DNA from: Escherichia phage SP15
DNA: 64,000 nt
Sequence record: AP019559
Direction: 5' to 3' (one strand)
The position numbers and the translations under genes are program-made. Positions 3,899 through 44,486 of this stretch are shown in pieces. The notes under the pieces were generated by a model. That model did not search any database. It was not told where the DNA came from and saw nothing but the letters and a program-made list of their open reading frames with translations. The stretch's first letter is position 1. Each line of letters opens with the position of its first letter.

Positions 3899-3929
3899 CT
3901 ATTCTTCCGAATTTATAAGATATATTATA

Positions 3930-8100: not shown

Positions 8101-8365
8101 CATAAGTGATTTCCACACCCCACTATTTATAAATTAGAGAAGAGTTTAGGGGAGAGGTTTCAGACGCCTCATTTTACACGTTCTAGCCACTAACCGGGAT
8201 TGCCGCCCCCTGTGTACTAGTTTTACAACTAACCTACCGACTCTATTCAACGAATCTTAGTGCTCGACGCATCTTACATTAAGACAAGTTCAGCGTAATC
8301 GGCTCGCTGTTCTCTAATTTATGAATATATTATACAGAATTTATAAGCATTTAGCAAATAAATTT

Positions 8366-30065: not shown

Positions 30066-30094
30066 TTGCTTTCAGGAAAAATTTTCTGTATAAT
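30066..30094 (+). promoter_or_regulatory. T5 P_N25-like early promoter
   Basis: AAATTTATTTGCTTTCAGGAAAATTTTTCTGTATAATAGATTCATAAATTTGAGAGAGGAG matches the P_N25 sequence as I recall it. Confidence 0.75.
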
Positions 30095-33612: not shown

Positions 33613-33755
33613 CTAACAACCCTTTGCTACCCATCTACCATATCGGAATTATAAAGTGGTTATTGACATTTTCGCCGCTTAGGTATATACTATTATCATT
33701 CAGTTGAGGGATAGAAAGTTATGGCGAGGGTAAGCAAAGTTAGTTAAAATTGTAG

Positions 33756-33784
33756 TTGCTAAATGCTTAAATACTTGCTATAAT
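33756..33784 (+). promoter_or_regulatory. T5-type early promoter for ligase subunit B
   Basis: TTGCTA-17 nt-TATAAT. Confidence 0.55.
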
Positions 33785-33814
33785 ATTTATATAAATTGAT
33801 AAGGAAGAAATTTG

Positions 33815-34594
33815 ATGAAAATCGAAATTCCAACACAATGTCCCTCTTGTGGTTCTAAGCTCGATCTTGTCAACGGACAATTATTCTGTCGTAATAAGTC
33901 CAACTGTCCAGCACAATCAAGTAAGTTAATTGAGAACTTCTGTACAAAAATGAAGTTAAAGGGTTTTGGCCCAAAAACTATTGAGAAGCTGGAGCTGACG
34001 AAGATTTCAGAACTATTTTACCTAACCGAAGAAGATTTGGTTAGAGCCGTGGGTAGCAAGGTTGCCGCTAAGTTAATTAGCGAATTAAATACTAAAGTTC
34101 GCGGAGACATTGACTTTGGTTCAGTTCTCGGTTCTTTAGGAATCCCTCTAATTGGAGAGGTTGCAGCAAAGAAATTATCCCAAAATTGCACTAGCTTCCA
34201 CGATGTGAAGGCTGACGGCAAGGCTGGAGAAAACTATAAAGCCTGGCTAAATTCCACACAAGGCAAGGATGTTATCGAATTACCGTGGAAATTCACAACT
34301 GGTATTAAAGGTGCTAAAGCCGAGGTCATCATTACTGATGGTCTAGTAGCCCAACCAAATGGAATAACGGTATGTATTACCGGATCTTTGCAAGATTTTG
34401 CAAATAGAACGGATGCAACAAACTATCTAGAAGGTCTAGGGTATACTGTTAAAAAATCAGTTACCAAAGACGTTAAATACCTAATCTGTGAGGATGAATC
34501 TAAGCGTTCTTCCTCATCTTATAAGAAAGCCGAAACGAATGGGATAGAAATCCTGTCGATTAAAGAACTATTGGAGAAAAATAATAATGTCTAA
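33815..34594 (+). CDS. NAD-dependent DNA ligase, Zn-finger/HhH/BRCT part (split ligase subunit B)
   Basis: CPSCGSKL...CRNKSNCPAQ Zn-finger, HhH-like GIPLIGEV, C-terminal BRCT-like region; ATG 33815. Confidence 0.7.
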   Translation: MKIEIPTQCPSCGSKLDLVNGQLFCRNKSNCPAQSSKLIENFCTKMKLKGFGPKTIEKLELTKISELFYLTEEDLVRAVGSKVAAKLISELNTKVRGDIDFGSVLGSLGIPLIGEVAAKKLSQNCTSFHDVKADGKAGENYKAWLNSTQGKDVIELPWKFTTGIKGAKAEVIITDGLVAQPNGITVCITGSLQDFANRTDATNYLEGLGYTVKKSVTKDVKYLICEDESKRSSSSYKKAETNGIEILSIKELLEKNNNV

Positions 34595-41343: not shown

Positions 41344-41833
41344 TTTCAAATTGCCCGTCTATGCGTTACGGGCGTTTGTATCAATTGAGCAAGAAGGTGA
41401 TTATTCCGTAATTACAACAAGATATAATAAATATGTGCTAGATAACAGGAAGTTGCCTGGCACGTTTTCTCAACGTAGGCTTATTCTATTTGAGAAACGG
41501 AAAGAATTACCATACAAGCTCTATCCTATTAGAGGTAGAATATCAATGTTGTCTCAATTAGTTGGGTCAAAGCGTAACCAATTTATAGATTCTGATGGAA
41601 ATCTTATTAATTGGAAGAAAACTACGTTCTACGATGTTGTCACCTCTAAAGTTTTGCATTCAGCTAGAATTTATAATGGAAAATACCAATGCTATGTGGC
41701 TAAAGTCCCTTATCCATTTGTATTATCCTATGTTCCAGCTTATATAAGCTATATTCTGGTAAATAATAGCCCTGTTATTTATCAAGTCCATCAAGAGGAG
41801 CCTGAAATTCCTAGACTTAGAATAAAATTATGA
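41336..41833 (+). CDS. hypothetical protein (no in-frame ATG until codon 69; GTG start)
   Basis: GTG 41336 after AAAGGA; translationally coupled to downstream helicase (ATGA overlap). Confidence 0.4.
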   Translation: MLNFKLPVYALRAFVSIEQEGDYSVITTRYNKYVLDNRKLPGTFSQRRLILFEKRKELPYKLYPIRGRISMLSQLVGSKRNQFIDSDGNLINWKKTTFYDVVTSKVLHSARIYNGKYQCYVAKVPYPFVLSYVPAYISYILVNNSPVIYQVHQEEPEIPRLRIKL

Positions 41834-43182
41834 AGGTTGTTATATCTAATAAAGCCTATTTCAAGCCCGATGATGAACTTTGGGATTATTGTAGTAAGCA
41901 AACCACTTATCACATAGAGACAATGACTAGTAAATACCCTATTATGTATAAGAATAGTGGTGTTGTTGCCAAAGAGATTAAGTGGATTCCTATTACGCGT
42001 CTGGACTTACTAGATGCTAAAGGAGTAAAATACGAATTAGTCGATAAACGCACATTAGCTCCGGTAGATATACCAAAACCTAAGTTCAAACTGCGTGAAG
42101 AAGATCAGCTTCCAATATATGAAGAATGCGATGATACCTGTATTATTAATGGTAAGCCTGGATTTGGTAAGACTATTCTAGCCCTTGCACTTGCGTATAA
42201 ATTTGGCCAGAAAACTTTGGTAATCTGTACGAATACATCCATTCGTGAAATGTGGGCGGCAGAAGTTCGTAAATGGTTTGGGTTTGAACCAGGCATCATA
42301 GGTTCTGGGAAATACAATATTGATCCACCAATTGTAGTCAGTAATATTCAAACAGTGAATAAACATGCGAATAATCTTTCTAAAGTATTTGGTACTGTTA
42401 TAGTTGATGAAGTTCACCATTGTGTGGCTACAACTTTCACTAACTTCCTAGAAATATCATGTGCTCGCTATAAAATTGGACTATCCGGCACACTAAAACG
42501 AAAAGATGGTTTACAAGTTATGTTCAAAGATTTCTTTGGATATAAGATATTTAGCCCGCCGGTTAATAATACTGTTGCACCTACAATCCATAGGTACTCC
42601 GTGCCTGTTGAGCTATCAGGAAACCAAAACGTGCCGTGGGCATTACGTGCTAACGATGTGTATAATCATCCTGAATATCGAGAGACTATTATAAACCTAG
42701 CACATTTATATGTGAATATGGGACATAAAGTACTCATTGTAAGTGATAGAACAGAGTTAATCCAAACAGTACTAGAAGCACTATCTCAGCGAGGAGTCAC
42801 AACCTATGAGATTATTGGCGCAACCCACTTAGATAACCGATTAAAAATTCAGGAAGATATAGCAAAAGGTGGCCCTTGTGTACTTGCAGCAGCTCAAAGT
42901 ATCTTCTCTGAAGGTATTTCCCTTAATGAGCTATCTTGTTTAATAATGGGAAGCCTCATTAATAATGAATCTCTCATTGAACAGCTTGCAGGCCGTGTTC
43001 AACGTATTGTCGATGGTAAACTCGACCCTATTGTTGTAGATCTAATTATGAAAGGTGGCACTGGACTAAGGCAGGCTTCTGGACGGATGGCAGTATATCG
43101 TAACAATGGGTGGAAAACTATTACTATGACTCCTGAGAAAGCAGTTCAATTAGCTAAAATTGCATTTGGCAACAGCTCATAA
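41830..43182 (+). CDS. SF2 DNA helicase (T5 D10-like)
   Basis: Walker A GKPGFGKT, DEAH-like VDEVHH, helicase C-terminal motifs. Confidence 0.8.
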   Translation: MKVVISNKAYFKPDDELWDYCSKQTTYHIETMTSKYPIMYKNSGVVAKEIKWIPITRLDLLDAKGVKYELVDKRTLAPVDIPKPKFKLREEDQLPIYEECDDTCIINGKPGFGKTILALALAYKFGQKTLVICTNTSIREMWAAEVRKWFGFEPGIIGSGKYNIDPPIVVSNIQTVNKHANNLSKVFGTVIVDEVHHCVATTFTNFLEISCARYKIGLSGTLKRKDGLQVMFKDFFGYKIFSPPVNNTVAPTIHRYSVPVELSGNQNVPWALRANDVYNHPEYRETIINLAHLYVNMGHKVLIVSDRTELIQTVLEALSQRGVTTYEIIGATHLDNRLKIQEDIAKGGPCVLAAAQSIFSEGISLNELSCLIMGSLINNESLIEQLAGRVQRIVDGKLDPIVVDLIMKGGTGLRQASGRMAVYRNNGWKTITMTPEKAVQLAKIAFGNSS

Positions 43183-43194
43183 ATGATGTATAAT
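43166..43194 (+). promoter_or_regulatory. promoter copy 1 (no ORF immediately downstream)
   Basis: TTGGCA-17 nt-TATAAT followed by conserved leader ATATACATAAATTTGAGAGAG. Confidence 0.45.
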
Positions 43195-43265
43195 ATATAC
43201 ATAAATTTGAGAGAGAAAGTTTCGGATTGATAAGAAAGTCCGAAGCAGAAAAATAAAAATTTTAG

Positions 43266-43295
43266 TTGCTAAATTCTCTCGAAATCTAGTATAAT
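43266..43295 (+). promoter_or_regulatory. promoter copy 2 upstream of SSB-like gene region
   Basis: TTGCTA-18 nt-TATAAT followed by ATATACATAAATTCGAGGAG. Confidence 0.5.
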
Positions 43296-43402
43296 ATATA
43301 CATAAATTCGAGGAGAAAACAAAAATTAAATTCTTCGATTATGAAAAGCTATACTTACTAGCTAGAGGAAATTCCGACCTAATTATTAAGTTATTCAAAA
43401 GA

Positions 43403-43687
43403 ATGCTTATAGAGCCTGATGCTCACCAATTATTGGTCGGTTCCTCATTCATTTTGAATGAGTCAACAATAGTTGATAATCCAAATAAATTGTCTAATAG
43501 ACAACTGGCAGAATATCTAGGAATTTTAAGTCTACGAAATTATGCCGAATACAAGTTTACAAACGATCCTAGTTTGAACATACAATATGTTCCAGTATGG
43601 ATACCACGTTTAGTAATCGACACTAACCCACTAATCGCAATTAACAAATCGAAATTAATCTTTAAAGAGGAAATAAAATATGGCTAA
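43403..43687 (+). CDS. hypothetical protein (weak; may be 5' UTR)
   Basis: 94-aa ORF without recognisable RBS. Confidence 0.25.
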   Translation: MLIEPDAHQLLVGSSFILNESTIVDNPNKLSNRQLAEYLGILSLRNYAEYKFTNDPSLNIQYVPVWIPRLVIDTNPLIAINKSKLIFKEEIKYG

Positions 43688-44453
43688 GTCTTGGGGCGAA
43701 ACTACTGGCGGTTCTAACGATAAAATCGAATTCCTGAAGTTCAACAACGGTATCACTCGTGTTCGTATCGTTTCTGGTGTTCTTCCACGTTATGTCTATT
43801 GGCTGACTAATAAAGAGGGTAACGTAGCTCCTTTCGAATGTCTCCGTTTTAACCGTGACAAAGAGAGCTTTGTTCGTGGTAAAGCTGATCCAGTTCATGA
43901 GATGGGCTTCTTCGAGAAAGAGCTGGATAAAGATGGTAATCGTGTTCCGCTGAAACCGAAGAAAAACTATATCGCTTTTGTTATCGACCGTTCTGATAAC
44001 AAACTGAAAGTAATGGAAGTCAAGGCTACTATTCTGAAAGGCATCCAGTCTATCATGAAGCAGTTGAATCTGGCAACTCCGTTTGATATTGATATTTCTA
44101 TCGAGAAAAAAGGTAAAGGTTTCGATACTGAGTATGATGTGCAGCAGATTGCTGCTATGCAGTTCCAGATTAAGCTGCAAGACCCTAACAGTGCGGAATC
44201 TAAGCAATATGCTGCGGATGTAGATCTGATCGGTGAAGCTATGTGTGATGAAGATGGCGACATCATTAAGTTCGAAAAAGTTCCTTCTCTGGAACAAACC
44301 TATCCGGTTCCTACCTATGAAGAGCAGAAAGAAGCAATTCAAGCCTTCATGGAAGGTCGTGAGAATAAAGATGATGATGCCAAATCTGGTAATAGCAATG
44401 CAGGCTCCCAGAAAGGTATTGACACAGAAGCTGCAAGCGATCTGGACGACTAA
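43680..44453 (+). CDS. putative ssDNA-binding protein with acidic C-terminal tail; highly expressed codon usage
   Basis: 257 aa, AAGAGGA RBS, acidic tail ending ASDLDD, strong codon bias. Confidence 0.45.
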   Translation: MAKSWGETTGGSNDKIEFLKFNNGITRVRIVSGVLPRYVYWLTNKEGNVAPFECLRFNRDKESFVRGKADPVHEMGFFEKELDKDGNRVPLKPKKNYIAFVIDRSDNKLKVMEVKATILKGIQSIMKQLNLATPFDIDISIEKKGKGFDTEYDVQQIAAMQFQIKLQDPNSAESKQYAADVDLIGEAMCDEDGDIIKFEKVPSLEQTYPVPTYEEQKEAIQAFMEGRENKDDDAKSGNSNAGSQKGIDTEAASDLDD

Positions 44454-44458
44454 TAAAT

Positions 44459-44486
44459 AGAGGGGCTTCGGCCCCTTTCTTTTTAA
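44459..44486 (+). terminator. rho-independent terminator after SSB-like gene
   Basis: AGGGGCTTCGGCCCCT then TTCTTTTT. Confidence 0.65.

Follow-up and report, generated by a model that had tools for sequence, protein, structure and literature searches.

Why should a phage carry two copies of one early promoter-leader element about 100 bp apart, the first followed by a hairpin and not by a gene? The question is raised by a locus of Escherichia phage SP15 (record AP019559), of which a stretch of 64,000 nucleotides, referred to here as the window, was analysed. The window comes from a T5-like phage (Tequintavirus). At the locus it shares 99% identity with T5, and its closest records there are vB_Eco_mar004NP2 and SPLA5b (99.2% over 1 kb). 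The T5 reference sequence (NC_005859) is identical throughout 43135-43390, its flanking genes are likewise D10, T5.125 and D11, and nothing substantive differs.

Copies 1 and 2 map base-for-base onto two features of NC_005859, 'promoter P31A' and 'promoter P31B'. Judged from this match, the duplicated element is the already annotated pair of T5 tandem early promoters P31A/P31B, ahead of the SSB operon. A second T5 record, AY587007, labels copy 1 'repeat c copy 7' and copy 2 'putative early promoter T5P38'. The promoter pair itself is therefore known, and little follows from its presence. Of 19 in-vitro T5 promoters, only 11 could be seen by primer extension in vivo in a study that makes no mention of P31A or P31B (Klimuk et al. 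2020, PMC7472727); likewise, a search of open papers for P31A/P31B, tandem T5 promoters and T5 start-site maps returned none covering the site and no transcript data. The elements concerned are as follows.

41830-43182, + strand: D10-type helicase gene (open reading frame; annotated as D10 helicase in T5 and relatives).
43146-43220, + strand: promoter P31A, copy 1 (match to the NC_005859 feature, sigma-70 scan, profile score).
43247-43321, + strand: promoter P31B, copy 2 (match to P31B of NC_005859 and T5P38 of AY587007, sigma-70 scan).

The last ~35 nt of the D10 helicase gene double as the upstream and -35 region of P31A, and the open reading frame list of the window holds no minus-strand frame of at least 25 aa overlapping 43150-43400. 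The spacing given in the preliminary description was borne out: the 19-nt sequence TATAATATATACATAAATT is found without mismatch at 43189-43207 and at 43290-43308, which puts the two TATAAT hexamers (43189 and 43290) 101 bp from each other. At 87% identity the repeat reaches a length of 31 nt. With up to three mismatches to TATAATATATACATAAATT allowed, the window contains 12 copies against 0.09 expected, and these two are the only exact ones.

The same description took the copies for a conserved early promoter-leader module, and the NC_005859 features, together with the fit of both copies to the sigma-70 and T5 early-promoter patterns, agree with it. The extended pattern specific to the family is found, namely an upstream A-rich block, an AT-rich discriminator, an ATAAAT transcript start and a GAGAG-type Shine-Dalgarno sequence. 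P31A combines a -35 element TTGGCA (43166-43171), a 17-bp spacer and a -10 element TATAAT (43189-43194), matching the sigma-70 consensus at 11 of 12 positions, and its leader and downstream region reads ATAAATTTGAGAGAGAAAG. P31B has TTGCTA (43266-43271), an 18-bp spacer and TATAAT (43290-43295), with 10 of 12 positions matched. The A-rich block at 43248-43263 upstream of it may act as a UP element, its predicted transcription start is A43302, and its Shine-Dalgarno sequence GAGGAG lies at 43310-43315.

P-N25 is a promoter of very high strength, and its initial transcribed region is functional. It serves as the type of the T5 early promoters (Gentz and Bujard 1985, as cited in Klimuk et al. 2020, PMC7472727), and its homologue in the window lies at 30089. 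Features of its family recur here: an A-rich block near -45, a TTGCT-type -35 element, a spacer of 17-18 bp, TATAAT, an AT-rich discriminator and the transcript start ATAAATTTGAGAGAG. By analogy with P-N25, transcription from P31A is predicted to begin at A43201. Unlike members of that family, P31A has its -35 element, TTGGCA, inside coding sequence, and what comes after it is not a gene but a hairpin and then a second promoter.

The window's 15 other canonical T5 early promoters were used to construct an ungapped early-promoter profile (leave-one-out mean 47.4 bits). P31A scores 50.1 bits against this training mean and ranks 15th of 127,840 positions. Its upstream half contributes 16.1 of these bits, so that P31A is a whole promoter and not a mere leader repeat. 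The score of P31B is 25.0, because its 18-bp spacer moves the upstream half by one base in a profile that admits no gaps.

Could copy 1 nevertheless be an inactive relic of a local duplication, with P31B alone in use? AY587007 labels it as a repeat only and not as a promoter. Furthermore, the discriminator of both copies, ATATAC, is absent from every other copy in the window, which suggests local duplication or gene conversion (the consensus discriminator of T5 early promoters is 'ATATT'; Klimuk et al. 2020, PMC7472727). A relic would be expected to decay, yet the -35 element, spacer length, -10 element and leader of copy 1 are intact and hardly vary between two genera, its profile score exceeds the average of bona fide copies, and NC_005859 annotates it as a promoter. 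Its elements were also kept in those Epseptimavirus genomes in which an HNH gene is inserted after the helicase gene. There a different sequence has taken over the coding of the helicase C-terminus, and the old helicase 3' end (AAAATTGCATTTGGCAAC...) is retained downstream of the HNH gene, where it has ceased to code for helicase and serves only as the -35 region of P31A. We consider the relic very unlikely.

The region downstream of copy 2 had been described as a long AT-rich leader preceding the SSB-like gene. This is mistaken: the stretch is coding sequence, since T5 records annotate the open reading frame T5.125 at 43403-43687, and its true start is the ATT at 43325. The related statement that no open reading frame lies adjacent can stand at most for copy 1, as T5.125 opens 9 nt past the GAGGAG of copy 2.

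43325-43687, + strand: T5.125 (phrog_4258), 120 codons from ATT (PHROG profile, homologue alignment, selection).
43680-44453, + strand: D11, the T5 single-stranded-DNA-binding protein (open reading frame; phrog_1607 SSB; T5 annotation).
44459-44478, + strand: intrinsic terminator closing the T5.125-D11 operon (8-bp GC-rich stem and T-run; annotated as rho-independent in T5).

T5.125 is thus predicted to begin at a rare AUU start codon, ~23-24 nt past the predicted P31B start site. Residues 2-120 match positions 2-120 of the 120-position phrog_4258 profile (E = 3e-60), all 16 aligned homologues have Met at the ATT column, and the alignment of the homologues, which are 116-122 aa long, starts at residue 1 in every case. 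The ATT is present in 22 of 22 Tequintavirus-type IMG/VR loci and in all 27 ATT-type open reading frames examined. In nearly all other lineages the homologous start is ATG or GTG, and in one distant locus ATA. Within the ATT lineage, codons 2-26 carry six synonymous variants against one non-synonymous variant and no stops, and 1-nt indels are confined to the region upstream of ATT; this pattern of variation indicates that the codons are under purifying selection.

Gene callers ignore ATT starts, which explains why all T5-type records and protein entries examined give a T5.125 of 94 aa (43403-43687), 26 codons too short. Hundreds of contigs carry 94-aa forms, and a collection of 15 billion proteins lacks the two commonest 120-aa forms. 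The extended frame removes the apparent 100-nt "leader". AUU-initiated genes are known in bacteria, for example E. coli infC and pcnB. T5.125 resembles these in having an in-frame AUU where its homologues have AUG, with a good Shine-Dalgarno sequence at 9 nt; unlike theirs, its AUU initiation is predicted from sequence. We know of no link between this AUU and autoregulation of the IF3 type. Sequestration of the Shine-Dalgarno sequence by codons 3-5 was considered and rejected, as the structure is weak (-6.1 kcal/mol, z = -1.4) and not conserved.

The D11 ATG overlaps the T5.125 stop codon (ATGGCTAA). D11 matches the phrog_1607 SSB profile (E = 6.6e-106) and is taken as the T5 SSB elsewhere (bioRxiv 10.64898/2026.02.22.705581); a Pfam search returned no matches for T5.125 or D11. 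The terminator scan makes no call between 43200 and 44458, and the first convincing terminator downstream is that at 44459-44478, after D11.

Taken together, P31A and P31B are likely to be tandem sigma-70 early promoters that feed a single T5.125-D11 operon, with P31A adding an mRNA with a long leader. Both would fire in vivo from start sites at or near those predicted, and the short operon, T5.125 then D11, would end at 44459-44478. The P31B mRNA would have a leader of ~23 nt, consisting mainly of GAGGAG and nine bases before the AUU of T5.125. P31A, 101 bp upstream with its -35 element inside the end of the helicase gene, would yield the same mRNA with a leader of ~124 nt, containing a conserved 10-bp hairpin and then the P31B promoter sequence as RNA. 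Two strong promoters in series would raise the output of the operon, whose SSB is presumably needed in large amounts.

This arrangement is not confined to the T5 lineage. Two or three tandem promoters ~100 bp apart precede the T5.125 homologue in Epseptimavirus, Sugarlandvirus and two further lineages, and in phage My1 the promoter at the P31A position is the sole one and drives the T5.125 homologue directly. Within T5, P-K28b and P-K28a form the other annotated tandem pair, similar in layout, on one strand and 93 bp apart, upstream of ligB-D5, an operon that, like T5.125-D11, encodes an abundant DNA-binding protein. Downstream of P-K28b, as of P31A, come in order a Shine-Dalgarno sequence, a mini-ORF of 8 codons, and the UP region and -35 element of the second promoter. 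P-K28b differs in its elements (TTGACA / TATACT, not the TATAAT...ATAAAT type), and no counterpart of the conserved hairpin was seen in this pair.

What, then, is the role of the sequence between the two promoters? It holds two candidate elements.

43219-43246, + strand: conserved hairpin (folds, uniqueness, conservation).
43227-43256, + strand: 9-codon mini-ORF, TTG...TAA (read from the sequence), after the P31A Shine-Dalgarno-like GAGAGAGAAAG.

The hairpin was correctly noted in the preliminary description. Its stem (43219-43228/43237-43246) has 10 bp and its loop (43229-43236) 8 nt, with a dG of -14.0 kcal/mol and z = -6.5, and its core arms, TTCGGA (43221-43226) and TCCGAA (43239-43244), occur once in the window, with 0 expected. 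The absence of a start codon after copy 1, claimed in the same place, holds for ATG and fails for TTG. The TTG at 43227 sits where canonical copies carry their start codon and opens the mini-ORF. A leader peptide was nevertheless rejected: in Sugarlandvirus a 9-nt loop deletion removes this start codon while the stem stays, so the mini-ORF is probably meaningless.

The hairpin is common to three genera, over which its conservation equals that of the best-conserved coding blocks nearby, and it is nearly invariant within Epseptimavirus. Between the window and three Epseptimavirus genomes, 59 of the 60 positions at 43195-43254 are identical, against 84% overall. Extrapolating from known T5 promoters, the invariant block at 43187-43258 would be mostly explained by promoter function, the hairpin excepted: the -10 element, discriminator and initial transcribed region of P31A and the A-rich upstream block of P31B would account for its constraints. 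When folded individually, the hairpin of each lineage is stable; the 'broken' Sugarlandvirus pairs in the covariation alignment are an alignment artefact of the loop deletion. In the lineage alignment (RNAalifold), compensatory double substitutions were found at 0 of 10 stem pairs, with single wobble-compatible changes only, and three singleton genomes (L019, L024 and L033) carry a stem mismatch. For these two reasons an RNA-level function of the hairpin is not proven. A long-range stem between the GAGAGAG of the P31A leader and CUCUCUC in the P31B spacer was also tried; it was rejected as a conserved feature because this spacer is the least conserved part and Epseptimavirus folds differently there.

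The hairpin had prompted the proposal that copy 1 makes a short non-coding transcript or acts as a decoy or regulatory promoter. Under such a reading, P31A transcripts would end near the hairpin, or P31A would be a decoy or RNA polymerase sink that modulates P31B. In its favour, positions +19 to +46 of the predicted transcript form a stable conserved hairpin that no conserved open reading frame follows, and T5 offers a precedent in the early-type promoter P16-17, which drives rnaX and tRNA (AY734508). The sequence, however, lends the proposal no support. The stem is followed by GCAGAAAAAUAAAAA, which is no U-tract, and the terminator scan does not call the hairpin, which was rejected as an intrinsic terminator on either strand. 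A permissive Rfam 15 scan of 43100-43750 on both strands gave nothing credible, the best match being on the opposite strand with 18.9 bits (E = 0.17), where the gathering score is 100. The direct use of the My1 promoter for a protein gene and the recurrence of tandem promoters ahead of both T5.125-D11 and ligB-D5 also speak against a short RNA or decoy, which we consider very unlikely. With no U-tract and no terminator until after D11, P31A transcripts should read through into T5.125-D11.

The inverted repeat might instead act as DNA, as a palindromic operator with its centre ~70 bp upstream of the P31B start, where a phage or host regulator would bind and control P31B, for example in early-gene shut-off. 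The distance from its 3' arm to the P31B -35 element is fixed in T5, Epseptimavirus and Sugarlandvirus, while that to the upstream start site varies, a constancy that would equally fit a DNA-level site belonging to P31B. The 9 bp deleted in Sugarlandvirus amount to nearly one helical turn, T5 and Epseptimavirus conserve the loop sequence along with the stem, and different inverted repeats overlap the -35 element of the second promoter in two other lineages. Yet both imperfect positions of the stem are G.U pairs, and the substitutions that more than one genome shares (U.G to C-G; U-A to U.G) leave G.U or G-C pairs and preserve pairing only in the + strand RNA. Moreover, the motif occurs once in 64 kb and is thus not a repeated operator, and no candidate binding protein is known. 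An operator seems unlikely, and the hairpin is most likely an RNA structure in the long P31A leader, where it may affect transcript stability, processing or pausing. At 28 nt it is a small and cheap target for studies of T5 early-gene expression or for expression vectors based on T5 promoters. It is, with the re-annotation of T5.125, a by-product of modest practical value.

T4 gp32 represses translation of its own mRNA, and the autoregulatory leader of gene 32, which encodes the T4 SSB, consists of a structured element and, after it, an A/U-rich tract that is unstructured. A hairpin and a long A/U-rich leader upstream of an SSB operon resemble this, as a resemblance only. Unlike in T4, the A/U-rich tract doubles as a promoter, with the start codon of the SSB gene following ~435 nt downstream and no predicted pseudoknot. 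It is improbable, though conceivable, that the SSB operon is controlled post-transcriptionally at a point made up of the hairpin, the long A/U-rich leader and the lineage-specific AUU. D11 or T5.125 might bind the P31A-derived leader and repress translation, or the AUU might make T5.125 synthesis sensitive to the levels of initiation factors. Translation would then differ between the P31A and P31B mRNAs, setting the T5.125:D11 ratio. The start region of T5.125 turns over rapidly between genera, with a weak Shine-Dalgarno sequence and AUG, a strong one and AUU, one with GUG, an AUG 4 nt past the -10 hexamer and a 26-nt deletion among its states, and this turnover would fit a tuning of that ratio.

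The exact 19-mer TATAATATATACATAAATT occurs twice in the window, at 43189-43207 and at 43290-43308, and the repeat grows to 31 nt at 87% identity with a spacing of 101 bp. Allowing up to 3 mismatches, 12 copies of it are found in 64 kb (0.09 expected by chance), and these two are the only exact ones. Both the duplicated promoter-leader, with copies about 100 bp apart, and the hairpin reported in the preliminary description are thus real, and they correspond to a known, annotated tandem promoter pair. In an alignment, window 43135-43390 equals reference T5 (NC_005859) at each base, and that record carries two regulatory features between D10 (helicase) and T5.125, a small conserved gene:

43146-43220, promoter P31A, copy 1, mapped from NC_005859 by alignment
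43247-43321, promoter P31B, copy 2, mapped from NC_005859 by alignment

The independent T5 annotation AY587007 names copy 1 'repeat c copy 7' and copy 2 'putative early promoter T5P38'. Its 'repeat c' is a 29-bp module of -10 plus leader, copy 6 of which sits within T5P33, the P-N25 of NC_005859. Since both annotations mark the copies, the duplication had been noticed twice before, but they disagree on the promoter status of copy 1. A literature search returned no published start-site data for the P31A/P31B locus in the searchable literature.

A sigma-70 scan reads P31A as TTGGCA-17-TATAAT (11/12) and P31B as TTGCTA-18-TATAAT (10/12). Against a profile of positions -50 to +30 around the -10, built from 15 canonical T5 early promoter-leaders in the window, P31A scores 50.1 bits (leave-one-out mean 47.4), ranking 15th of 127,840 positions, with 16.1 bits contributed by the half upstream of the -10. 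Such a score, upstream half included, indicates that P31A is probably a whole promoter of the T5 early family, not a mere copy of the leader. P31B scores 25.0, a lower value due solely to its 18-bp spacer, which misaligns its upstream half with the ungapped profile. The sequence lends no support to copy 1 as a decoy or source of a short RNA, and the statement that no start codon follows it holds only in part: a TTG at 43227, at the canonical start-codon position, opens a mini-ORF of 9 codons.

Copy 2 had been described as followed by a long AT-rich leader, with no adjacent ORF; what lies there is T5.125 coding sequence. T5-type records and protein entries examined give this gene 285 bp (window 43403-43687), a 94-aa form from an internal ATG at 43403, although the frame is open from 43295. 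Epseptimavirus records annotate the homologous gene at 363 bp, and its ATG aligns with the window ATT at 43325-43327, 9 nt past GAGGAG. The ATT-initiated translation matches positions 2-120 of the 120-position PHROG profile phrog_4258 (E = 3e-60), and all 16 homologues compared (116-122 aa) start with Met at the alignment column of the ATT. Tequintavirus-type IMG/VR loci read ATT here in 22/22 cases; Epseptimavirus, Sugarlandvirus and more distant phages use ATG, My1 uses GTG, and a single distant locus (L055) carries ATA.

Window 43325-43402, and Tequintavirus loci L015-L035 and L041: ATT-start loci

Among the 24 distinct ORF sequences of the ATT lineage, codons 2-26 hold 6 synonymous variable sites and 1 non-synonymous one, with no stops or frameshifts; the remainder of T5.125 holds 20 and 8. 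By our binomial estimate, at least 6 synonymous changes in 7 would have P ~0.001 if about 1/4 of random changes are synonymous. The A-run that separates GAGGAG from the ATT varies in length by 1 base in two loci (L026 and L033), and no such change lies downstream, which places the translation start at the ATT. T5.125 is thus predicted to be longer than annotated, starting at ATT 43325; this unannotated start, a small new point, adds 26 codons in the T5-type genomes examined. The Shine-Dalgarno GAGGAG of the ATT lineage is stronger than GAUGAGAGAC of the ATG lineage, which we infer to be compensation. Versions of 94 aa are found on hundreds of contigs in public collections; the two most frequent T5-type versions of 120 aa do not occur in a collection of 15 billion proteins.

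The T5.125 stop overlaps the ATG of D11 (ATGGCTAA, 43680-43687), a hint that translation of the small protein and that of the SSB are coupled. D11 matches phrog_1607 and is treated as the T5 SSB (bioRxiv 10.64898/2026.02.22.705581). In Sugarlandvirus the two homologues lie 2 nt apart, with no overlap. The scan called no terminator from P31A to 44459, where the following one begins:

44459-44478, strong intrinsic terminator 3' of D11, found by scan and annotated in T5 too

The 1-kb stretch around the two promoters shares 98-99% identity with many T5-like phages (Tequintavirus). Megablast matched 440 phage records and a more sensitive mode 547, the latter reaching Epseptimavirus (~88%), Yersinia phiR2-01 (82%), Klebsiella Sugarlandvirus (~66%) and also Pectobacterium My1. 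Epseptimavirus has the same two promoters and the hairpin. Between this window and three of its genomes, 59/60 positions are identical at 43195-43254, against 84% overall and just 21-22/30 in the -35, spacer and leader part of P31B. The invariant block contains the -10, discriminator and initial transcribed sequence of P31A, together with P31B's A-rich upstream block, elements that matter in T5 promoters; apart from the hairpin, promoter function accounts for it.

The inverted repeat TTCGGA-N12-TCCGAA (43221-43244) occurs just once in the window (0 expected by chance). Folded as RNA it extends to a stable stem of 10 bp (43219-43228/43237-43246) closed by a loop of 8 nt (dG -14.0 kcal/mol, z = -6.5), and its stability by lineage is -14.0 kcal/mol in T5, -13.6 in an Epseptimavirus G variant, -12.6 in phiR2-01 and -9.7 in Sugarlandvirus. 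Two substitutions are common to more than one genome: phiR2-01 and Sugarlandvirus have C-G in place of U.G, and an Epseptimavirus subgroup has U.G in place of U-A. These and a singleton A-U to G.U (L021) keep pairing in the + strand RNA. Three singleton genomes (L019, L024, L033) have a stem mismatch, and double compensatory changes numbered 0 in the genomes compared. An outer long-range stem predicted in T5 was not reproduced in the Epseptimavirus fold, and Rfam gave no match for the hairpin region. An intrinsic terminator is ruled out, because an A-run follows instead of a U-run. A less likely reading is that the hairpin is a DNA-level operator for P31B, in line with its fixed distance from the P31B -35. 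The favoured reading is that it would act as an RNA element of the long P31A leader, in stability, processing or pausing. This conserved hairpin is the second small new point.

Some Epseptimavirus genomes have an HNH homing-endonuclease gene directly 3' of the helicase gene:

L007 677-1207, L008 668-1198 and L010 706-1203 (Epseptimavirus relatives), HNH gene between helicase and P31A

There the helicase C-terminus comes from a different, diverged sequence, 2 codons shorter. The old helicase 3' end, AAAATTGCATTTGGCAAC..., is kept 3' of the HNH gene, no longer helicase-coding; its sole role would be as non-coding promoter DNA, the P31A -35 region. Klebsiella Sugarlandvirus has three tandem promoters upstream of its T5.125 homologue:

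L011 1430-1660 and L012 1340-1570, three tandem promoters

The stem of the hairpin and the subsequent GCAGAAAAATAAAAA are kept directly upstream of the last promoter, with 9 nt deleted from the loop. Two further lineages (L046, L048) have two promoters ~100 bp apart with differing inverted repeats. My1 has a single promoter at the P31A position, its -35 TTGGCA inside the helicase 3' end, driving the T5.125 homologue directly with a 20-nt leader; a single promoter is likewise found in Vibrio phages. The other tandem pair annotated in T5, P-K28b/P-K28a, lies upstream of ligB-D5 and resembles P31A/P31B in its build: a promoter comes first, next a Shine-Dalgarno and a mini-ORF of 8 codons, and last the UP region and -35 belonging to the second promoter:

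33663-33815 (NC_005859 66366-66533), P-K28b/P-K28a pair
33663-33668 TTGACA and 33686-33691 TATACT, upstream promoter
ATG 33721 to TAA 33747, 8-codon mini-ORF after the Shine-Dalgarno GAGGGA

Together with this pair, the relatives' layouts argue, at the level of sequence comparison, for a functional tandem layout.

Several minor observations were made. In the last Sugarlandvirus promoter, the ATG of the T5.125 homologue lies just 4 nt past the -10 hexamer (TATAATaatcATG), so the transcript would be (nearly) leaderless. In phiR2-01 (L009 780-1160) a 26-nt deletion takes the P31B leader, Shine-Dalgarno and first codon of the T5.125 homologue; by eye, the remaining ORF appears open to the normal stop, and the record leaves the homologue unannotated. 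Small slippage variants occur within promoter modules of two Tequintavirus IMG/VR loci: L035 has its P31B discriminator lengthened by two TA units (TATAATATATATATAC, window 43296-43301 in the alignment), and L027 has one GA more in its P31A leader (GAGAGAGAG, window 43209-43216). Downstream of the canonical early promoter-leader copies at 8317-8334 (-) and 3911-3929 (-) lies tRNA or other non-coding sequence, without Shine-Dalgarno and start codon, and the T5 record AY734508 annotates a homologous promoter, P16-17, as the driver of a 719-nt 'RNAX' and tRNA-Arg.
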